The notes under the pieces were generated by a model. The model searched no databases. It was not told the DNA's origin and worked only from the letters and a program-made list of their open reading frames with translations. A stretch of 64,000 nucleotides of DNA, from assembly GCA_965287045.1 (NCBI GenBank), contig OZ336891.1:42284001-42348000 (forward strand). Direction: 5' to 3'. Numbering within the stretch: the stretch's first letter is position 1; the number at the start of each line of letters is the position of its first letter. This stretch comes from Carcharhinus amblyrhynchos (Eukaryota). Shown here in pieces: positions 6,790-58,640 of this stretch. The translations under genes and the position numbers were made by a program.

Positions 6790-7558
6790 TAGAACTTAGA
6801 ATAGAGAACATTACTGCGCAGTACAGGCCCTTCGGCCCTCGATGTTGCACCGACCAGTGGAACCAATCTAATGACCCTCTAACCTAAACTATTCCAATGT
6901 TATCCATATGCCTATCCACTGACCATTTGAATGCCCTTAAAGTTGGCGAGTCCACTACTGCTGCAAGCAGGGCATTCCACGCCCTTACTACCCCCTGAGT
7001 AAAGAACCTACCTCTGACATCCGTCCTATAATTATCACCCCTCAATTTAAAGCTATGTCCCCTCGTGTTAGCCATCGCCATCTGAGGAAAAAGGCTCTCA
7101 CTGTCCACCCTATCTAATCCTCTGATCATCTTGTATGCCTCAATTAGGCCACCTCTTAACCTTCTTCACTCTAATGAAAACAACCTCAAGTCCCTCAGTC
7201 TTTCCTCATAAGACCTTCCCACCATACCAGGCAACTTCCTGGTAAACCTCCTCTGCACCCTTTCCAATGCTTCCACATCTTTCTTATAATGCGGTGACCA
7301 GAACTGTACACAATACTCCAAGTGCGGCCGCACCAGAGTTTTGTACAGTTGCAACATGACCTCACGGCTCCGAAATTCAATCCCTCTACCAATAAAAGCT
7401 AACACACCATACGCCTTCTTAACAACCTTACCAACCTGGGTGCCAACTTTCAGGGATCTATGCGCATGTACCCCAAGTTCTCTCTGCTCGTCGCCACTAC
7501 CAAGAGTCCTTCCATTAGCCCTATATTCTGCCCTCCTGTTACTCTTTCCAAAGTGAAT
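6790..7558 (-). mobile_element. CR1 3' fragment
   Basis: ORFs 7166-7405 and 6884-7129 give LYKTLVRPHLEYCVQFWSP...TRGH...WNAL; tail at ~6790-6810. Confidence 0.95.
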
Positions 7559-8446
7559 CTCGGTGTGGCACTTGAGGTAGAAGTCTGAGGTGAGAGTATT
7601 ACCAGCTGAGCCACAACTGACTCCAAAGGAAAGGAATGGCCATGGTCACCTGCATTTCAAAGTTTAGTTTTGCTGCAATGTGAAAAATTGGTGAAAATTC
7701 CGATTGGCTGGAGAAAGAATGTGAGTGATGCACAATGAGGACAGAAAATAATCAAAATAATCAAATAAAAAGGTGAAAAGGCCTGAACAGTAACCAATGA
7801 GGATGAAGCAAGCAGACTCAACTTGACAGATGTTTTGACAGAATCATACTAATTGTTAAGTAGATGTGTTATACCGAATATTCATTTATAATGTCATCGG
7901 CTGGACATGTACGTATATATTGAACATTTTTCTAGAAAAAAAACTTTGCTAAACAAAGGACATTGGCCTATTGTGTTGTAAAGTACACAAGCTGCATTAT
8001 GGAGACAAGAAACGCTATGGGGACAGTGGCTAGAGTGAGCCCAGAAAGAAACCACATGACCAGCTCTTGAGTGAAATATACTGGATTTGAGTTAACTGTG
8101 AGTCTTACACAGCGATGGAAAGGGTAACAGCCACTCTGCCCTTTCTTCTCCAAAAACCAGTTTCATCAAAGCTGAGTGTGTGATTTGAAAACCCACCACA
8201 AAACTTTGTAGCTGCAAACAAACAGTTCTTAGAGGAGGATTCTAAAACCACACCACTATCTCCAAGAAAACAGAATCAGCCAACTATGCCTGCAAACCGA
8301 CTGTTCCAGTCAGAGACACCAACACCAGAGGCTACTGTGCCAAGTAACCCTCCTCTGTAAACAAACATCTGGACAATCTGTGAATAAATCATTTCTGACT
8401 TCTCTTAGCCAGGTTTTACCGTCTGATACTCTAAAATGTTATCTCC

Positions 8447-11535: not shown

Positions 11536-12029
11536 TTAAGGTGAGTGGAACAGGGTAGGGGTAGGAAAACCCACCCACCCTTGGCCAATTGAAGCCTTTA
11601 AGTCGCCAATTTGAGCATGCTCCATAAAAATTGGCCCAACCAGTTCATGCCAGCATCGATGCTCCACCCAAGATTCCTCCTATTCTTTTTTATCTAACCC
11701 TATCATAATAACTATCTACTGTCTTGTCCCTCACATATGTTTATCTAACTTTGCCTTGAATGCATTTTATAGTATTCCTTTCAAGCTCACCCTGTGGCAG
11801 CGAGTTCCACATTCTCAACACTCACCGGATAAAGGATTTTTGATGATAACCATAGATCGATGAACTCCAGGTTTGATGTTTCCCAAAGGTATAAATGTTC
11901 TTTCTGTATTCACTTTATCAAAACCTTTCATAATCTTAAAGATTTCAGTTTGACTTTTCCTTGGCCTTCTCCTTTCCAGAGAAAAGAGATCTGGTCTGTT
12001 CATCCTTTCTTCATAACTTCAGATAAGAT

Positions 12030-12350
12030 GGCACGGTGGCACAGTGGTTAGCACTGCTGCCCCAGAGCACCAGGGACCTGGGTTCAATTCTGGCCTCAGG
12101 TCACTGTTTGTGTGGAGTTTGCACTTTCTCCCCATGTCTGCGTGTGTTTCCTCCAGCTACTCCAGTTTCCTCCCATAGTCCAAAGATGTGCAGGTTAGGG
12201 TGATTGGCCATGCTAAATTGAGGCTAGTGTCAGGGGATTAGCAGGGTAAGGATGTGGGGTTACGGAAATAGGGTCTGGGTGGAATTGTGGTCAGTGCAGA
12301 CTTGATGGGTCAAATGGCCTTCTTTCACACTGTAGGGATTCTATTCTATG
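12030..12350 (+). mobile_element. HE1 V-SINE, full length
   Basis: GGCACGGTGGCACAGTGGTTAGCACTGCTGCC head, V core, ATTCTATTCTATG tail. Confidence 0.93.
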
Positions 12351-12413
12351 AGAAACCATCCTTCTTGATTATTTTTGCACCCAATTCCAGTTGCCTTCTA
12401 CCTTGTTTTAGAA

Positions 12414-12493
12414 CTGGAGTCTCCAAACTACAGCCCATGTGCCACATTCGACCTGCAGCGGGCCACATCCAGATCGGAGTTTGGAGACCACTG
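12414..12493. mobile_element. 80-bp hAT (Charlie-like) MITE
   Basis: TIRs CTGGAGTCTCCAAACT / AGTTTGGAGACCACTG; perfect 8-bp TSD TTTTAGAA at 12406-12413 and 12494-12501. Confidence 0.88.
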
Positions 12494-12699
12494 TTTTAGA
12501 ATATTGAAACTGAAATTGTTCACAGCTCTTTAAATGTGGTCTAATTCAAGGTTAAATATAAATTCAGAATAACTTCTCTACTTTTCAATTCTGTCCCTCG
12601 AGAAACTAATTCTAGGGATTCTTTGACTTTTGTTGTGGCCTTATTAACCTGTGCAGCTATATTCCATGAACGATGCATGTGTATACTTTGCTCATTTAG

Positions 12700-14030
12700 A
12701 GAAGAACATAAGAACTAGAAGTTGGGCATCCCGCCCCTCGAGCTGTTCCACCATTCAATAGAATCATGGTTAATCTCATCTTGGTCTCCTCTCCACCTTC
12801 CTGCCCACTCCCCATAACACTTCATCCCGCTGCTAATTAAAAGCCATCTAACTCCTTAATTAGTGTTCCGGCATCCATTGCACTCTGGAGTAGAATATTC
12901 CACAGATTCGCAGTGAATTAATTCCTCCTCATTTCTATTTTAAATCTGCCACCCCTTAGCCTAAAACTATGACCTCTCATTCTGGAATGTCCAACAAGGC
13001 TAAAGATCCATTCCACATTGACCCTCATCATCTCCAAATAGCTGATCGCGATTGACAGGTCGATCTCGGAGTCTCGAAAGATCGATTGTTATTGGCTGTT
13101 AAACCTCTGCCGAAAATGTGTGGAGCTCAGGGTTCTCGCGATGATGAGCGAATCAGCTCATTGGCTGCTGAATTGCGGGCGCCAAAACATGCAGGAAGCT
13201 GGGTGAAGACACAGGGCCGGATTTTACCATTTTGATTCTAAATGCTGAACCTCGGCGCAATTAAGATCCGATTGGAAACCTGTTCTCAGGTGCCCTCATA
13301 CACACCCAGTCTGGAAAAACAAAATGCGGATTTGGATTGCACAGTGGGCGGGGTTTATCGTGCCCGAAACACTGCGGCTCTGATCAGTGCTTTGAATCAC
13401 GCATGCACGCTGAAACAAAAATTTGAAAACGCTCCCCTGTCACTTCTCTCCCAGACCACAAAAAGCAGATAAAGTGGCCCAGGAGCAAAAAGCAGGAGCG
13501 ATGGCCCCTATAGATATTGCTCCCATCCCCATAACATAATCAAAACTGTACACAATACTCCAAGTGTGGCCTCACCAATGGCTTATACAACTGTAACATA
13601 ATGTCCCCAACTCCTATACTCAATGCCCTGACTCATGAAGGCCAATGTACTAAAAACCTTCTTCACCACCCTGTCTATCTGTGACATTACTTTCAACACA
13701 CTATGTACTTGTACTCCCAGGTCTCTCTGTTCCTCAACCTCCCCAGGGCCTTACCATTCACTGTATAAGTCCTACCCTGATTTGACTTTGCAAAGTGCAA
13801 CACCTCACACTCTGTATTAAAATCCATTTGCCAATCCTCTTTCCTAACTGACCAATTTTTGATAATATTCTTTACTATCACTGATACTCCTAACTTAGGA
13901 ATATCTGCAAACTTATATTCAGACCTGAATCATTTATACCAATAACGAATAACAAGGGTCCAACACCAACCCCTCAGGTACACCACAAGTCAAAGGCCTG
14001 CGGTCTGAGAAACAACCTTCCGACTCTCTG
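12700..14030 (-). mobile_element. CR1 fragments (12700-13020, 13540-14030) separated by CpG-rich DNA-transposon-like inserts
   Basis: Tail AGAACATAAGAAC; ORF 13693-13881 WQMDFNTECEVLHFAKSN; insert begins GGGCCGGATTTTACC at ~13214. Confidence 0.7.
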
Positions 14031-20564: not shown

Positions 20565-21555
20565 CTGGATAGAAAACTGGTTGTCAGACAGGAAACAAAG
20601 AGTAGAAATAAACAGGATATTTTCCAAGTTCAGACAGTGACTAGTGGGGTATCACAGGATTCCAATTATTCACTTGATATATTAATGATTTAGATGAGGG
20701 AATTAAATGTAACATCTCCAAATTTGCAGATGACAGGAAGTGGGTGGCAGGGTGAGTTGTCAGGAGGATATGAAGATCTTTCAGTGTGATTTGGACAAGT
20801 TGAGCGAGTGGGCAAATGCATGGCAGATACAGTATAATGTGTATAAATGTGGGCTTATCCACTTTGATAGCAAAAACAGGAAGGCATATTATTATCTGAA
20901 TGATGAGAGATTGAGAGAGGGGAGGGTGCAATGAGACCTGGTTGCCCTTGCTTACTAGTCGCTGAAGGTAAACGTGCAAATGCAGCAGGTGGTAAAGAAG
21001 GCAAATGGTATATTGGGCATCATAGCTAGAGGATTTGAGTACAGGAACAGGAATGTCTTTCTACAGTTATGATGTGGAGATGCCGGCGTTGGACTGGGGT
21101 AAACACAGTAAGAAGTCTCACAACACCAGGTTAGAATCCAGCCAGTTTATTTGATAGTAATCCCACAAGCTTTCAGAAACGGTGTTCTTTCATCAGGTGT
21201 GTGGAAGGTTCCAAGAGAACTTGGAAGGATGTTCTTGCTATAGAGGTAGTTCAGGGAAGGTTTATCAGGCTGATCCCTGGGATGGCAGGACTGAGTTGGT
21301 TAGGATTGTATTTGCTGGAGTTTCGAAGAATGAGGTGAGGGGATTTCATAGACATCAATAAAATTCTAAAAAGACTAGACTGGGTAGATTCAGGAAGGAT
21401 ATTCCTGATGGTGGGGGTGTCCAGAACCAGTAGTTACAGTGTAAAGATATGGGGTAAACTTTTTAGGACAGAGATGAGGAGAAATTTGTTCACCCAGAGA
21501 GTGGCGAACCTGTGGAATTTGTTACCACAGAAAGTAGCTGAAGCCAAAATATTGT
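20565..21555 (+). mobile_element. Degenerate CR1 RT fragment, interrupted by a Penelope pLTR
   Basis: WIENWLSDRKQRV, INDLDEG..SKFADD, WANAWQIQYNV.KC, FTQRVANLWNLLP. Confidence 0.9.
21071..21205 (-). mobile_element. Penelope pLTR end with intact hammerhead core boxes
   Basis: - strand: CAC-CTGATGA-AAGAACACCGTTTCT-GAAA-GCTT-GTG followed by the family terminus ..GCATCTCCACATC. Confidence 0.8.
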
Positions 21556-26494: not shown

Positions 26495-27272
26495 GTCACT
26501 GTCAAGGTGGCACTGCAAAGATGGTCATCCAGTGGACAGTGCCAGCGTGCAGTGCTCGGTGACAGTGCTAGGGCCGGTGCTACATGCAGTGCCTCAGGGC
26601 AGTGATAGGTGGCAGTGCCAGAGGGCAATGCCAGGGGCTGTTCCAGGGTGCAATGCCAAGTGCAATACCAAGGTGCTGCGTGAGGGAGCAGTGCTAGGGG
26701 GCAGGGCTGGGGAAAATGCTAGGGAGCAGTGCTAGGATGCAATGCCGGGGGTAGTGCTAGGGCAATGCTAGGGGGCAGTTATAGGTGGCAGTGTGAGGGC
26801 ACTGTGTCAGAATGCAGTGCCAGGGGGCACTGTTGAGGGCAGTGCTAGGGAAAGTGCGAGATGGCAGTGCTGGGGGCAGTGCTGCGGACAGTGCAAGAGG
26901 ACATTGCAAGGGGGCAGTGCTGGGGGCAGTGCTAGGGGCAGTGCAAGGGGGCAGTGCCAGGGGCAGTACGAGGGGCAATGCAAGGAGCCAGTGCCAGGAC
27001 GCAGTGCTAGGGGCAGTGCCAGAAACAGTGCGAGGGGGCAGTGCATGGAGGCAGTGCGAGGGAACAGTGCGTGGAGGCAGTGCAAGGGAACTGTGTGAGT
27101 AAGCAGTGCTGGGGGCAGTGTGAGGGAGCAGCGCTGGTGGGCAGTGCAAGGGGGCAATACCAGGGCACAGTGCCAGGGGCAGTGTAAAGGGGCAGTGCGA
27201 GGGAACAGTACCAGGGGCAGTGCCAGGGGCAAGTGAGAGTGCAGCGCAAGGGTGCAGTGCGAGCGTGCAGTG
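26495..27272 (+). repeat. Degenerate minisatellite, ~14-nt unit GGGGGCAGTGC(T/C)AG
   Basis: Dozens of GGCAGTGC/CAGTGC units at ~13-15 nt spacing; explains the overlapping low-complexity ORFs on both strands. Confidence 0.92.
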
Positions 27273-27580
27273 CAGAGTGGTTAATACGGCTACCTGACAG
27301 CACCAGGGACCTGGGTTCGATTCTCAGCTTGGGTTACTGTCTGGTGAAGTTTTCACATTCACCCTGTGTCTGTGTGGGTTTCCTCTGGGTGCTCCAGTTT
27401 CCTCCCATAGTTCAAAGATGGGTTAAGTGCATTGGCCATGCTAAATTGCCCTTTGGAGTCCCAGGATGCATGGGGTAAAAATGTGGGGTTACAGGTATAG
27501 GACCTGGGTAGCATTGTTGTCCATGTAGACTTAATGGGCTGAATGGCCTCTTTCTGCACTGTAGGGATTCCCTGATTTTA
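27270..27580 (+). mobile_element. HE1 V-SINE
   Basis: AGTGGTTAA..CAGCACCAGGGACCTGGGTTCGATT head, V core, CR1-type tail. Confidence 0.9.
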
Positions 27581-28316: not shown

Positions 28317-28601
28317 ATGCCAGACATCCACACCTGTGCTCGGTGTGTGGAGTTGCAGGCCCTACGAAACCAGGTTAAGGAGCTGCAAATGCAGCTCGAG
28401 GACCTTCGGCTAGTTAGGGAGAGTGAGGACGTTATAGAAAGGAGCTACCAGCAGGTAGTCACACCAGGGCAACGGGATGAGGGCACTTGGGTTACCATTA
28501 GGAAGGGGAAAACACGGGTGATGGGGAGCACTCCGGTGGATGTCCCCCTTCAAAATAAGTACTCCGGCCTGAGTACTACTGGGGGGGAACAGCTCATCTG
28601 A
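28317..28601 (+). CDS. CR1 ORF1, N-terminal part (CxxC + leucine-zipper-like coil), frameshifted from the esterase part
   Basis: CARC followed by heptad leucines (LQALRNQVKELQMQLEDL), then WVTI and VPLQNKYSGL. Removing one G from the G7 run at 28581-28587 joins it in frame to 28639-29178. Confidence 0.85.
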   Translation: MPDIHTCARCVELQALRNQVKELQMQLEDLRLVRESEDVIERSYQQVVTPGQRDEGTWVTIRKGKTRVMGSTPVDVPLQNKYSGLSTTGGEQLI

Positions 28602-28638
28602 GGGAGGAAGCGATGGCCAGCTCTCTGGAGCTGAGCCA

Positions 28639-29178
28639 GTGAGCCAAAAAATCAAAAAGGGAAGCAGAAAGGTAGTATTAATAGGGGACTCCACAGTGAG
28701 GGGCGCGGACAGGCGTTTTTGTGGACGTAGAAGGGAGTCGCGGATGGCGGTTTGTCTCCCTGGGGCTGGGATCCAGGATGTCTCTGGGCGGGTCCCAGAC
28801 ATCCTGAAAGGGGAGGGTGAGGAACCGGAGGTAGTAGTACATATAGGTACTACTGATGTAGGTAAGAAGAGGGAGGCACTTGTGAAAAAGGACTATAGGG
28901 AACTGGGTAGGCAGCTGAGGAAGAGAAAAGCGAAGGTAGTAATCTCAGGATTGCTGCCTGTGCCAAGGGAGAATGAGGGAAGAAATGAAATGAGGTGGAG
29001 GGTGAATGCGTGGCTGAGGGACTGGTGTAGAGGGCAGGGATTTCGGTTCCTAGATCACTGGGACCTCTTTAGGGGTAGGTGGGACCTCTATAGTAGGGAC
29101 GGGTGGCACTTAAATACCAGGGGGACTAGTATCTTGGCGGGAAGACTGGCTAAGGCTACCGGGGGGACTTTAAACTAG
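28639..29178 (+). CDS. CR1 ORF1, C-terminal SGNH/GDSL esterase domain
   Basis: IGDS block I, CLPGA, VVVHIGTTD and DGWHLN blocks typical of CR1 ORF1 esterase; ends ACT TTA AAC TAG. Confidence 0.9.
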   Translation: MSQKIKKGSRKVVLIGDSTVRGADRRFCGRRRESRMAVCLPGAGIQDVSGRVPDILKGEGEEPEVVVHIGTTDVGKKREALVKKDYRELGRQLRKRKAKVVISGLLPVPRENEGRNEMRWRVNAWLRDWCRGQGFRFLDHWDLFRGRWDLYSRDGWHLNTRGTSILAGRLAKATGGTLN

Positions 29179-29279
29179 AAAGGATAGGGGGAGGGAACTG
29201 TGTTGGGGAAACTGGGACGGAGGAGGTTCGCTCCCAGGTAGGGGAGGACCGCAGGCAGTATGCGAGGGAGGTTAGACAG

Positions 29280-32093
29280 GTGGTGGAGATGGGAAATGCC
29301 CAGACTGAGGGGCTGAAGTGTATATATTTTAATGCAAGGAGTATAGTGAATAAGGTAGATGAGCTTAGGGCGTGGATAGCTGTTTGGGATTGTGATGTGG
29401 TGGCCATTACGGAGACTTGGATGTCTCAGGGACAGGACTGGGTACTTCAGGTGCCAGGCTTCAGGTGCTTCAGGAAGGACAGGGAGGGTGGCAGAAGGGG
29501 TGGTGGCGTGGCACTGTTGATCAGGGATAGTGTCATGGCTACAGAGAAAGAGGATGTCGTGGAGGGATTGTCTACAGAATCTCTGTGGGTGGAAGTTAGG
29601 AACAGCAAAGGGTCAAAAACTTTGCTGGGTGTAATCTATAGGCCGCCCAATAGTGACAGGGAAGTTGAAGTGCAAATAGGGAAACAGATTCTGGAGAGAT
29701 GTTTTAATAACAGAGTTGTCGTGATGGGAGACTTCAATTTCCCAAACATCGACTGGAATATCCCTAGGGTAAGGGGTATAGATGGGGAGGAGTTTGTTAG
29801 GTGTGTTCAGGAGGGTTTCCTGACGCAGTATGTGGACAAGCCTACGAGGGGAGAGGCTGTACTTGACCTGGTACTGGCGAATGAACCAGGGCAGGTGATG
29901 GATCTTTCGGTAGGAGAGCATCTTGGATATGGTGACCATAATTCTATCTCCTTCACAATTGCGTTGGAACGAGATAGGATCAGGCAGGCTAGGAAGGTGT
30001 TTGTCTGGGGTAAGGGGAGATACGAAGAAGTCAGGAAGTTACTTGGACAAATAAACTGGAAGGAGGCGTTCTTAGGGAAAAGTACCGAAGGAAGGTGGCA
30101 GATATTCAAGGAATGTGTGTCTGGAGCTCTGAATGACAACGTTCCGATGAGACGAGGGGGTTTTGGTGGGTCGAGGGAACCGTGGTGCACAAAGGATGTG
30201 TTGAACCTAGTCAGGAAGAAAAGGAAGGTGTACAAGAGGTTCAGGGAATTAGGAGATGTTAAAGATCTTGAGGAGTATAAGGACTGTAGGAGGGAACTTA
30301 AAAGGGAAATTAGGAGAGCCAGAAGGGGTCATGAGAAGACCTTGGCGAGTAAGATTAAGGAGAATCCCAAGGCCTTCTATAAATATGTGAAAGGTAAAAG
30401 GATAAGAAGAGAAGGGATAGGACCGATAAAAGGTGAGGGGGGAAAGGTTTGTGTGGAACCAGAAGAAATGGCGGAGGTGCTTAACGAGTACTTCGCCTCA
30501 GTATTCACGGTGGAAGCCGATCTGGGAGATTTTGTTATGGATTTGCAGCAGATGGAAAGGATTGAGTACGTGAATATTAAGGAGGAGGATGTGTTGGAAC
30601 TTTTGAATTCTATCAAGGTAGATAAGTCGCCGGGACCAGATGGGATGTACCCCAGGATACTGTGGGAGGCGAGGGAAGAGATTGCAGAGCCCCTGGCGAT
30701 GATCTTTGCGTCGTCAATGGAGACGGGAGAGGTTCCAGAGGATTGGAGGATTGCGGATGTAGTTCCTATTTTTAAGAAAGGGAACAGAGATAGCCCGGGA
30801 AATTACCGACCGGTGAGTCTGACCTCAGTGGTTGGTAAGCTGATGGAGAGGCTTCTGAGGGACAAGATTTACGAACATTTGGAGAGGTTTGACATGATCA
30901 GGAATAGTCAGCATGGATTTGTCAAGGGCAGGTCGTGCCTTACAAGCCTAGTTGAGTTCTTCGATAATGTGACTGAACACATTGACGAAGGAAGTGCCGT
31001 GGACGTAGTGTACATGGACTTCAGCAAGGCGTTTGATAAGGTCCCCCATGCAAGACTTCTTGAGAAGGTGAGAGGGCATGGGATCCAAGGGCCTTTGGCC
31101 TTGTGGATCCAGAACTGGCTTGCCTGCAGAAGGCAGAGAGTGGTTGTGGATGGGGCTTTTTCTGAATGGAGGTCAGTCACCAGCGGAGTGCCTCAAGGAT
31201 CTGTTCTGGGACCCTTGTTGTTTGTCATTTTCATAAATGACCTGGATGAGGAAGTGGAGGGATGGGTAAGTAAGTTCGCTGATGACACGAAGGTCGGTGG
31301 TGTTGTGGATGATCTGGAAGGATGGCAAAAGTTGCAGCAGGACATAGATAGGATGCAGGACTGGGCGGAGAAGTGGCAGATGGACTTCAACGCGGATAAA
31401 TGTGTTGTCGTCCATTTTGGCAGAACCAACGGGATGAACGAGTACACTATGAAGGGCAGAAGTCTGAGTAGTGTTGAGGAGCAGAAGGATCTTGGGGTCC
31501 GGGTCCACAGGACTCTTAAATCGGCCTCGCAGGTGGAGGAGGTGGTCAAGAAGGCGTATGGTGTACTGGCCTTCATTAATCGAGGGATTGAGTTTAGGAG
31601 TCGGGAGGTAATGCTGGAACTTTATAAGACCCTTGTCAGGCCTCATTTGGAGTATTGTGCGCAGTTCTGGTCGCCTCACTATAGGAAAGATGTAGAAGCT
31701 ATTGAAAGGGTGCAGAGGAGATTTACAAGGATGTTGCCTGGACTGGGAGGCATGCCTTATGAAGTTAGGTTGAGGGAGCTGGGACTCTTTTCCCTGGAGA
31801 GACGAAGGTTGAGAGGCGACCTGATAGAAGTTTACAAAATGTTGAGAGGAATAGATAGGGTGGACTCTCAGAGGCTATTTCCCCGGTTTGAAATGGTCGC
31901 TACGAGAGGACACAGATTTAAGGTGCGGGGAGGGAGGTTCAGAAGTGATGTTAGGGGTAAGTTTTTCACTCAGAGGGTGGTGAGTGAATGGAATCGGCTG
32001 CCGTCAGTGGTGGTGGAGGCGAACTCGCTGGGGTCTTTTAAAAGACTTCTGGATGAGTATATGGGGTTTAATGAGATTGAGGGTTATAGATAG
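29280..32093 (+). CDS. CR1 ORF2: AP-endonuclease + reverse transcriptase
   Basis: 937-aa open frame. APE motifs YFNARS, VAITETW, IYRPP, MGDFNFP, LDLVL, GDH; RT motifs NYRPVSL, QHGF, DFSKAFD, GVPQGSVLGP, FADD; CR1 C-terminus TRGH...FFTQRVV..WN.LP. First ATG at 29289; frame is open from 29154. Confidence 0.97.
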   Translation: MVEMGNAQTEGLKCIYFNARSIVNKVDELRAWIAVWDCDVVAITETWMSQGQDWVLQVPGFRCFRKDREGGRRGGGVALLIRDSVMATEKEDVVEGLSTESLWVEVRNSKGSKTLLGVIYRPPNSDREVEVQIGKQILERCFNNRVVVMGDFNFPNIDWNIPRVRGIDGEEFVRCVQEGFLTQYVDKPTRGEAVLDLVLANEPGQVMDLSVGEHLGYGDHNSISFTIALERDRIRQARKVFVWGKGRYEEVRKLLGQINWKEAFLGKSTEGRWQIFKECVSGALNDNVPMRRGGFGGSREPWCTKDVLNLVRKKRKVYKRFRELGDVKDLEEYKDCRRELKREIRRARRGHEKTLASKIKENPKAFYKYVKGKRIRREGIGPIKGEGGKVCVEPEEMAEVLNEYFASVFTVEADLGDFVMDLQQMERIEYVNIKEEDVLELLNSIKVDKSPGPDGMYPRILWEAREEIAEPLAMIFASSMETGEVPEDWRIADVVPIFKKGNRDSPGNYRPVSLTSVVGKLMERLLRDKIYEHLERFDMIRNSQHGFVKGRSCLTSLVEFFDNVTEHIDEGSAVDVVYMDFSKAFDKVPHARLLEKVRGHGIQGPLALWIQNWLACRRQRVVVDGAFSEWRSVTSGVPQGSVLGPLLFVIFINDLDEEVEGWVSKFADDTKVGGVVDDLEGWQKLQQDIDRMQDWAEKWQMDFNADKCVVVHFGRTNGMNEYTMKGRSLSSVEEQKDLGVRVHRTLKSASQVEEVVKKAYGVLAFINRGIEFRSREVMLELYKTLVRPHLEYCAQFWSPHYRKDVEAIERVQRRFTRMLPGLGGMPYEVRLRELGLFSLERRRLRGDLIEVYKMLRGIDRVDSQRLFPRFEMVATRGHRFKVRGGRFRSDVRGKFFTQRVVSEWNRLPSVVVEANSLGSFKRLLDEYMGFNEIEGYR

Positions 32094-32466
32094 ATCTGTA
32101 GGTTGGTAGGTGATGTGGTCGGCGCAACTTGTGGGCCGAAGGGCCTGTTTGTGCTGTAGTGTTCTATGTTCTATGTTCTATGTTTAAAAAAAAGGTGGCA
32201 TGTAAAACTGGCATTGCCTCCAATCTATTTATTTTCCCTTTGAGCAACTTGGGCTAAAATGGGCCCCAGTGAACAGTGAGTTACCGGTTTGATAGATACT
32301 AGGTAGAGTCATAAGTCATAGAGTCATAAAGCTAGTCTGCTAACAGTCACCAGTTGCTCAATTGCTTTGTATTATTCACATTCTGTACCTTGAAGAACAC
32401 CAAAACAAATCAGAATTTTGTCTTTTAAACCCAGGTCGTTCGATTTTTGCTCTCAGAATGAGCACA

Positions 32467-34790: not shown

Positions 34791-35554
34791 TGGCCTGGTG
34801 TTTTCAGTGATGACAGTGATAAGGTGCTGTTCGCCATCATTACGCACTGAAACTTCTGGATTTAGATTAAGTTGCCGCCAGTTGATTCCACATTTCCCCA
34901 CAGGGTGCGCTGTTGAGACATCCCAGAATGCACTCAATAGCAAATTAAATGAATTGATGGCCTACAACTCCCTGGCTTTGGGGGAATACCCCAAAGATGC
35001 GCTGGGGATTTCCTCTCAGAAGCTCCCGGCTAAGGCTTTACACGGCACTTGTCCAGAAACTCTGACTTCCTCTGGATAACTGCGATGCACTGGAAACTAT
35101 CTGACAAAACAAGTTGTATCACTAACTGCAGATGGTTTTACACTAATAATTATTTTGAAAAAGTTCGATGAAATAAAGCTTCCGATTTCAGCGCAGCTAT
35201 TTTAAACACCCAGATCAACCCTTGCATGGGGCAGGACTCCCCCCCACCACCCCCCCAACACCCAGCCCACTTACAATGAGTCTACCCCCCTCATCCCATT
35301 CCCCATCTGAGGCTGACTGCCACTCCAAGAAAGTTATGACTCCATGAGGATTCCACTCTTATTCTGTTAGTCTTGCTGTAATAATTCTTTTAGAAGTTGC
35401 ATTTTGTTGAATGAAATTTTTTTTAATGGCATATTAATTTCATAATAACTGCTAACCAGCCTCACTGACTCTGAGGAACATAAATGGAATGCTAAATTTC
35501 TGCATAGTGATAAAAGATGCCGTATTGTCAAATAAATACATTTTTTACATAATT

Positions 35555-36352
35555 AGATTGCAGACTTGGGCAGAGAAATGGCAGATGGAGTTTAATCCAG
35601 ATAAATGATGCATTTTGGAAGATCTAATTCAGTGCGAATTATACAGTAAATGGCAGAACCCTTAGGAGTATTGAGATACAGTGGGATTTGGGAGTATAAG
35701 TCCATGGATCCTTGAAAGTGGCAACACAGATGGATAAAGTGGTTAAGAAGGCATACAGCAAGTTTGCCTTCATTGGTTGGGCATTGAGAATAGAAATTGG
35801 CAAGATTATGTATAAAATTTCAGTTAGACCAAATTTGGAATATTGCATGAGTTCTGGTCATCACACTACCAGAAGGAAATGGATGCTTTGGAGAGGGTGC
35901 AAAGGTTTACCAGAATGTTTCCTGGTCTGGAGGGTTTTAGGTATGAGGAGAGGTTGAATAAACATGGATTGATTTCACTGGAAAGACGGAGACTGAGGGG
36001 AGACTTGATAGAGGGCTGCAAAATTATGAGAGGCATGGATTAGATGGAAAGCCAGAGGTTTTTTTCCCAGGGTGGAAGGGTCGATTATAAGAGGGCACAG
36101 GTTTATGCTGAGAGATGGAAATTTTAGGGGAGACATTCCGGAAAAGTTTTTTCACACAGAGGGTGGTGGGTGCCTGGAAGGTGCTGCCAGAGGAGGGAAT
36201 GGAAGCAAATACATTAGCCTCATTCGATGTGTATCGTGATAGACATATGAACGGGAGGCAAATTGAGCAATAGAAACTGCATTTCAGTGCAGGCTTGGTG
36301 GGCCAAAAGGTGTGTTCCTGTGCTGTATTGTTCTTTGCTCTTTGTTCTTTGT
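35555..36352 (+). mobile_element. CR1 3' fragment with (TTCTTTG)n tail
   Basis: QMDKVVKKAY..FAFIG, RPNLEYC, LERVQRFTRMFPGL, SLERRRLRGDLIE. Confidence 0.92.
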
Positions 36353-42156: not shown

Positions 42157-42765
42157 CATAAGAACATAAGAAATAGGAGCAGGAGTAGACCATCTAGCCC
42201 TTCGAGCCTGCCCCGTTATTCAACAAGATCATGGCTGATCTGAAGTGGATCAGTTCCACTTTCCCGCTTTCTCCCCATAACCCTTAATCCCCTTGTCGAT
42301 CAGAAATCTTATCCACCCGTGACTTAAATATATTTAGCGAGGTAGCCTCCACCACTTCAATGGGCAGAGAATTTCAGAGATTCACCACCCTTTGAGTGAA
42401 GAAGTTCCTCGTCAACTCTGATCTAAACTGCACCCCGCCCCCCTTATTTTGAGGCTGTGTCCTCTAGTTCTGCTATCCTTACTAAGCGGGAAGAACCTCT
42501 CTACCTGTACCCTATCTAGCCCCTTCATTATCTTATATGTCTCTATAAGATCCCCCCTCAGCCTTCTAAACTCTAATGAGTACAGACCCAGTCTATTCAA
42601 TCTCTCTTCATAGTCTAACCCCCTCATCTCTGGTATCAGCCTGGTGAACCTTCTCTGCACTCCCTCCAAGGCCAATATATCCTTTCACAAATGCGGTGAC
42701 CAAAACTGCACACAGTACTCCAGTTGCGGCCTCACCAGTGCCCTGTACAGTTGCAGCAAGACCTT
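42157..42765 (-). mobile_element. CR1 3' fragment with (TTCTTATG)n tail
   Basis: ALEGVQRRFTRLIP..LGLYSLEFRRLRGDLIETYKIMKG..TRGHSLKIRG; CATAAGAACATAAGAA. Confidence 0.93.
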
Positions 42766-58054: not shown

Positions 58055-58640
58055 ATAGAAACTAGATGCAGGATTAGGCCATTCAACCCTTCGAACCTGC
58101 TCCGCCATTTATTTTGATCATGGCTGATCAACAAATTCAAATTCCTGACCCCCCTCCCCCCACTTCCTCGATCCCTTTAGCCCCAAGAGCTATATCTCAT
58201 TTCTTCTTGAAATCAGGCAATGTTTGGGCCTCAACTGCTTTCTGTAGTAGTGAATTCCACACATTCACTACTCTTTGGGTGAAGAAATTTCTCCCCACCT
58301 CAGTTCTAAAAGATTTATCCCTTATCCTCAAACTATGATCCCTAGTTCTGGACTCCCCCACCATTGCGAACATTCTTTCTGAATCTACCCTATCTAACCT
58401 GTTAGAGTTTTGTATATTTCTATGAAATTCTCTCACTCATCTAAATCCCAATGAATATAATCCTAACCGACTTGGACTCTGCTCATCTGACAGAGCTGCC
58501 ATCCCAGGAATCAGCCTGGTAAATCTTCGCTGTACTTTGTCTATAGCAAGGACATCCCTCCGCAGACAAGGTTACCAAAACTGCACACAATACTGCAGGT
58601 GTGGCTTCACCAATACCCTATACAATTGCAGCAAAAATTG
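58055..58640 (-). mobile_element. CR1 3' fragment
   Basis: LDRVDSERMF..GESRTRDHSLRI..FFTQRVVNVWNSL. Confidence 0.92.

Follow-up and report, generated by a model that had tools for sequence, protein, structure and literature searches.

The ORF1-ORF2 junction of a shark CR1 element

How is the second open reading frame (ORF2) of a CR1 element translated when it lies in the -1 frame of the first (ORF1)? The question is raised by a young copy of this long interspersed nuclear element (LINE) in a 64,000-nucleotide stretch of Carcharhinus amblyrhynchos DNA (contig OZ336891.1, positions 42,284,001 to 42,348,000, forward strand), which is called here the window and whose own numbering is used throughout. 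The esterase ORF1 of this copy closes with the heptamer T_TTA_AAC and a stop codon, and ORF2, which encodes an APE endonuclease and a reverse transcriptase (RT), is open in the -1 frame across that stop. Judged from sequence comparisons, the junction is very probably a heptamer-plus-stop signal that programs a -1 ribosomal frameshift and would lead to an ORF1-ORF2 fusion protein. The parts of the junction are as follows.

29151..29153, + strand: stop codon (TAA) bounding the -1 frame upstream, with no ATG from there to the heptamer
29169..29175, + strand: putative slippery heptamer T_TTA_AAC, the final ORF1 codons, identical in majority base across 7 of 7 subfamilies
29176..29178, + strand: stop codon of ORF1, adjoining the heptamer on its 3' side, TAG in the window copy and TAA or TGA in other subfamilies
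29179..29312, + strand: variable linker, open in the -1 frame only
29184..29186, + strand: in-frame ATG in most copies of the window's subfamily (ATA in the window copy), not in other subfamilies
29289..29291, + strand: second ATG in frame, which reads AAG in older branches and related organisms

The phased heptamer followed by TAG, the 25-nucleotide (nt) overlap of the two frames and a -1 frame that is stop-free after the TAA at 29151-29153 up to 32093 (979 codons) are all as the original prediction described them. XXXYYYZ-type heptamers of any phase number 14 in 3771 positions of the element (0.4% per position). Three properties of a -1 signal are found together at the junction, namely an XXXYYYZ word phased with the upstream ORF, a -1 frame open from before the 0-frame stop, and conservation at the nucleotide level. 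The prediction also held that about 37 codons without an ATG precede 29289, the first ATG of the -1 frame; this is true of the window copy and not of its subfamily, in most copies of which an in-frame ATG stands at 29184, 5 nt past the ORF1 stop. The A at 29186 is private to the window copy, and G is found in 29/29 other near-identical copies. In addition, ORF1 of the window copy lacks its first 21 codons and is disrupted by one additional base near 28588; its frame runs from 28573 to 29178. Since ORF1 is truncated and broken in frame, the fusion is impossible from the window copy itself, and the question concerns the family.

Conservation of the heptamer among subfamilies

Four divergent ORF1 protein queries and 40 fetched regions gave 219 loci in this genome, and 140 distinct copies were obtained after removing 3 loci without the ORF1 end and 76 duplicates. 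The queries contained the ORF1 C-terminus, which is a small selection bias in the locus set. Clusters were built from the part of ORF1 that precedes the junction, resulting in seven clusters with 26-39% DNA divergence; cluster 2 was divided by linker length and cluster 4 consists of two decayed copies, so that seven well-sampled subfamilies were compared. They are related by descent, and neither copy nor subfamily counts are independent.

The exact heptamer TTTAAAC is present in 122 of the 140 distinct copies and a stop stands right after it in 118; each of the seven well-sampled subfamilies has T_TTA_AAC plus stop closing its esterase ORF1. The codon ahead of TTA is ACT, GGT, GAT, CGT, CAT or TGT (Thr, Gly, Asp, Arg, His or Cys) and keeps its final T, and the stop after the heptamer differs by subfamily (TAG, TAA or TGA). 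The junction thereby shows eight invariant bases, whereas 350 control codon columns of ORF1 and APE contain no invariant run of six or more. Of 332 third positions in the controls, 24 are invariant, a single codon is used in 1 of 19 invariant Leu columns, and none of the 95 columns with three or more amino acids has T in all. Measured against these columns, the heptamer is conserved at the nucleotide level beyond coding need.

To the view that the heptamer is explained by descent and by constraint on the C-terminal residues of the ORF1 protein (...LN) only, with no recoding signal, we give next to no credence. LN is conserved at the protein level and the subfamilies are related, but synonymous positions are saturated elsewhere, as the Leu columns indicate, and fixed at the junction, even at the third base of a codon that varies.

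Contigs of four other organisms list no variant at 5% or more across 29166-29183, and at ATG 29289 they read AAG in 51-99% of the summed depth; their source runs are only guessed to be RNA, and the contigs carry no information on expression. They also bear on the idea that ORF1 and ORF2 are joined at the RNA level, by splicing or polymerase slippage, which is very improbable. Two joints do occur in contigs of possibly RNA runs, but both are in single low-depth contigs and have the ends AG..GG and CT..CG, not GT..AG. No joint or indel falls at the heptamer in the contigs of the four organisms, a weak argument since contigs drop rare variants, and no long homopolymer lies in the heptamer.

Distant relatives and published CR1 entries

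The 150 best ORF1 representatives at 50% clustering were analysed with a profile that included the LN columns, and 81 of them have a readable C-terminus: 43 end in LN, 9 in GN (all QGN) and 29 otherwise. The residue preceding LN has a codon unable to end in U in 1 of the 43, versus a background of 14% (P about 0.01). Two ORF1 proteins ending in RRALN belong to a snake and a turtle. The heptamer G_GGA_AAC was predicted from the QGN ends ahead of the DNA scan, and the scan of metagenome contigs with the distant alignment found four loci, three of them informative (L223 ends within ORF1 and was excluded). All three carry G_GGA_AAC, as CAG GGA AAC TAG in L220, whose -1 frame is open 502 codons into an APE that is 34% identical to the window ORF2, as GCG GGA AAC TAG in L221, and as CAG GGA AAC TAC TAG in L222, where the stop lies 3 nt after the heptamer. 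No loci were detected in viral contigs with the distant alignment, nor in metagenome or viral contigs with the shark alignment.

A three-base swap that keeps XXXYYYZ and changes the encoded residue in either frame is, at the sequence level, what we regard as the strongest single argument for slippage. The change of L to G where the heptamer changes also speaks against coding constraint alone. Together with the subfamilies of this genome, these relatives provide the comparison that the original prediction had called for: the heptamer with its stop and the open -1 linker are kept, and the ATGs are not.

The same junction context is seen in some published entries labelled LINE/CR1. In the CR1-group consensus table of the PMC13343379 supplement, 18 of the 23 matches listed for TTTAAAC plus stop lie at the ORF1 end as judged by eye; the entries were retrieved by the motif itself, which leaves no denominator, and presence is all that the result shows. 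By entry name, these matches include alligator, crocodile, bearded dragon, bullfrog, coelacanth, bowfin and halosaur, and among cartilaginous fish elephant shark, sawfish, stingray, catshark and dogfish. TAATG is found at the junction in the entries ScyCan_CR1-1a, SquAca_CR1-17a and SquAca_CR1-6c of this material. In the part of the PMC4316615 supplement covered, the motif matches fall in ORF2.

Other distant ORF1 ends, seen as proteins only, are SKN (P0112), KDF (P0126) and RFFR (P0100), which would fit A_AAA_AAC, G_GAU_UUU or U_UUU_UUC.

Linker length and initiation codons

The distance from the heptamer to APE is 111, 123, 126, 126, 135, 144 or 171 nt depending on the subfamily; these are copy modes, except 171, which is a majority call (the copy mode there is 170, in 4/8). 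It is a multiple of three in 94 of 130 copies, and 89 of 96 in-frame linkers are without a -1 stop. In the majority-call linkers, stops number 11 and 39 in the two other frames and none in the -1 frame. The linkers are unalike past the first 10 codons. No ATG is present in the linker in 14 of 14 in-frame copies of subfamily C2b, 12 of 13 of C7, 5 of 5 of C5 and 2 of 2 of C6. The first Met of these four subfamilies is commonly about 20-140 codons within the endonuclease; in C2b it lies 81-377 codons into APE, at 136 in nine copies. The argument from an AUG-free linker made in the original prediction is thus valid for these four subfamilies and fails for that of the window.

Termination-reinitiation, in which ribosomes would restart near the ORF1 stop in the -1 frame, at an AUG or independently of one, and make ORF2p as a separate protein, accounts for the open, triplet-length linker. 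It is also favoured by the in-frame ATG 5 nt past the stop in C3, by the TAATG in C4 and the three shark entries, by the tolerance of L1 ORF2 for any sense codon in place of AUG described in PMC1965478, and by the precedent of SART1 (UAAUG), which according to PMC5972666 requires a downstream element. It gives no reason, however, for XXXYYYZ in exact phase or for the change of the first triplet from UUU to GGG; besides, the -1 codon past the stop varies (GAA, GAT, GTT, ATT or ATG) and four subfamilies are without a linker AUG. An AUG at or near the ORF1 stop, as in SART1, is not conserved: it is found in C3, C4 and some published entries and in none of C2b, C5, C6 and C7. We consider reinitiation unlikely as an explanation of the junction, and it may coexist with frameshifting in some lineages (C3 with its AUG, and C4 and the three shark entries with UAAUG).

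One copy, L219 (G000:C12, about 384,400-387,600), has a sense codon in place of the ORF1 stop and one extra G in a G run, which give a single open frame of 1,172 codons, either an assembly error or a fusion of the two frames that exists in nature.

Sequences 3' of the heptamer and evidence against the signal

Downstream of the heptamer, one further element is conserved.

29186..29196, + strand: G-rich motif (G5, 2 nt, GGGA) beginning 10 nt past the heptamer, candidate stimulator, conserved in the subfamilies and in two alligator CR1 entries

The subfamilies share a run of five G (+17 to +21, counted from the heptamer start) and a GGGA (+24 to +27), the first G being A in the window copy, and the two alligator entries among the published consensus sequences have the motif at identical spacing. 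A G-quadruplex is predicted in 5 of the 8 copies folded, and G-quadruplexes are described in PMC3919603 as able to stimulate -1 shifting. The motif may act in frameshifting.

Several observations weigh against a frameshift signal. Apart from the shared descent of the subfamilies and the motif-dependent search mentioned above, 29 of the 81 distant ORF1s end in neither LN nor QGN. In-frame linker AUGs are present in C3 (34/39, at codon 6), C2a (15/16), C1 (3/5) and also L220, those of C1, C2a and C3 sitting at unrelated places, and a UAAUG stop-start with the ATG in the ORF2 frame occurs in the C4 copies L077 and L087 and in the three published shark entries. The distance between heptamer and APE breaks the frame in 36 of 130 copies. 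C6 most often has 170 nt (4/8 copies), with only 2/8 in frame, and neither C4 copy is in phase. We tentatively put the out-of-frame copies down to decay in G runs. No stem-loop or pseudoknot stem is conserved 3' of the heptamer in the eight natural copies folded (z -1.8 to +2.0), and the hairpin of the young subfamily is missing in the older copy L215. A long-range partner for the G-rich motif was also sought; the best sites, about 650 and 435 nt upstream, are Pro-rich ORF1 codons whose wobble bases vary, and they were rejected.

Proposed mechanism and comparison with known systems

In a -1 frameshift at this junction, tRNA-Leu and tRNA-Asn would slip in tandem at U_UUA_AAC, with pausing that may come from the adjacent stop and from the G-rich motif 10 nt downstream, acting as a weak G-quadruplex or a protein site. 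A minority of ribosomes would shift and produce a fusion of ORF1 (esterase), linker, endonuclease and reverse transcriptase of 307 + 972, or about 1,280, residues, and the majority would terminate, releasing the ORF1 protein. The shift efficiency would set the ORF1p:ORF2p ratio, as for Gag versus Gag-Pol. The esterase-APE-RT fusion originally proposed finds support in the conserved heptamer and stop, the open -1 linker, the non-conserved ATGs and the heptamer swap, all of them properties of sequence.

The coronavirus ORF1a/1b junction uses U_UUA_AAC, gag-pol of retroviruses and long terminal repeat (LTR) elements uses -1 frameshifting, and the PEG10 site is G_GGA_AAC. The coronavirus and retroviral signals are similar to that of CR1 in having a phased XXXYYYZ at the end of a structural ORF and the polymerase in the -1 frame; CR1 differs from them in being a non-LTR element, in the lack of a conserved pseudoknot or stem-loop, in the stop directly after the heptamer and in the lack of a protease to cut the fusion. 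PMC5009743 places both U_UUA_AAC and G_GGA_AAC in the group of four heptamers most prone to shifting.

A stop right after the -1 frameshift site is described in PMC4737148 for barley yellow dwarf virus (BYDV), red clover necrotic mosaic virus (RCNMV) and groundnut rosette virus, together with the statement that an adjacent stop helps the -1 shift in plant viruses and that pea enation mosaic virus tolerates any of the three stops. The BYDV, RCNMV and umbravirus sites so described resemble CR1 in the stop lying directly or 3 nt past the slippery site, L222 being the 3-nt variant, but they have a large hairpin and long-range 3' pairing, neither of which was found at the CR1 junction. Among LINEs, TRE5-A and TRE3-A of Dictyostelium need a -1 frameshift for ORF2 according to PMC5911963; like CR1 they are APE-type non-LTR elements, and unlike it they belong to the L1 clade and have a different ORF1. 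SART1 and human L1 share with CR1 a bicistronic LINE RNA, and their ORF2 translation is reported to depend on ORF1 translation (PMC2881922, PMC5972666); they differ in using reinitiation, making a separate ORF2p and having no heptamer.

No report of frameshifting in CR1 was found in the texts covered by our literature search, and the main text of a recent CR1-group survey has no occurrence of 'frameshift' or 'overlap'; an early remark in Haas 1997, Kajikawa 1997, Kapitonov and Jurka 2003, Kojima 2005, Alisch 2006 or Repbase is possible. For Dictyostelium LINEs, -1 frameshifting had already been stated. Reviews, in the passages concerned, call the translation mode of LINE ORF2 an open question.

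According to the same survey, most vertebrates have CR1-group elements as their dominant retrotransposons, and in sharks and rays these make up 22-34% of the genome. If frameshifting is true, CR1 would fix its ORF1p:RT ratio in a retrovirus-like manner and load RT into its particle, and the CR1 ORF2 protein would be redefined. We lean towards a more general reading, in which vertebrate esterase-type CR1s and their distant animal relatives would make RT as a Gag-Pol-like fusion through an ancient U_UUA_AAC/G_GGA_AAC-plus-stop signal, driven by a compact G-rich element and not a pseudoknot; the domain-free start at which CR1 ORF2 is annotated would then be wrong across vertebrates, and RT would carry a lipid-binding esterase and a multimerisation module. 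The signal is short and naturally varied (two heptamers, three stops, one G-rich motif) and directly open to reporter testing.

The host element and other sequences of the window

The element that carries the junction has the following parts.

28318..32184, + strand: CR1 LINE, young and 5'-truncated, with esterase ORF1 and APE-RT ORF2 (99.6% identity to L008, Pfam, near-identical genomic copies)
28317..29178, + strand: ORF1 remnant, SGNH esterase, residues 22-307 of a 307-amino-acid family protein, with one extra base near 28588
29313..32093, + strand: APE endonuclease and reverse transcriptase coding region, open (open frame, Pfam)
32160..32184, + strand: 3'-terminal tandem repeat (TGTTCTA)x3.6

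The match between the window copy and its full-length relative L008 begins at 28318, which corresponds to ORF1 residue 22. Pfam identified the esterase PF13472 in ORF1 and PF03372 (APE) and PF00078 (RT) in ORF2. The 40 best DNA matches to the element in the genome are near-identical, and many have an open ORF1 frame of 310 codons. The assignment to CR1 is consistent with the APE-RT ORF2, the esterase ORF1, the short 3' tandem repeat and the 5' truncation; vertebrate CR1s with an esterase ORF1 share with it the APE-RT ORF2, the 3' microsatellite and the 5' truncation. The named ORF1 homologs are from rays and sharks. Protein P0014, a shark-type CR1 ORF1 on a 4-kb contig, is filed at NCBI as a Pseudomonas aeruginosa SGNH/GDSL hydrolase and is likely host contamination.

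The window contains more 5'-truncated LINE RT fragments of differing ages, at 1904-2263, 6905-7585, 11893-13997, 20566-21554, 35549-36267, 42308-42765 and 58182-58640. A degenerate G-rich tandem array of 13/25-nt units (GCAGTGCCAGGGG-like) occupies 26537-27273, about 1 kb upstream of the LINE.

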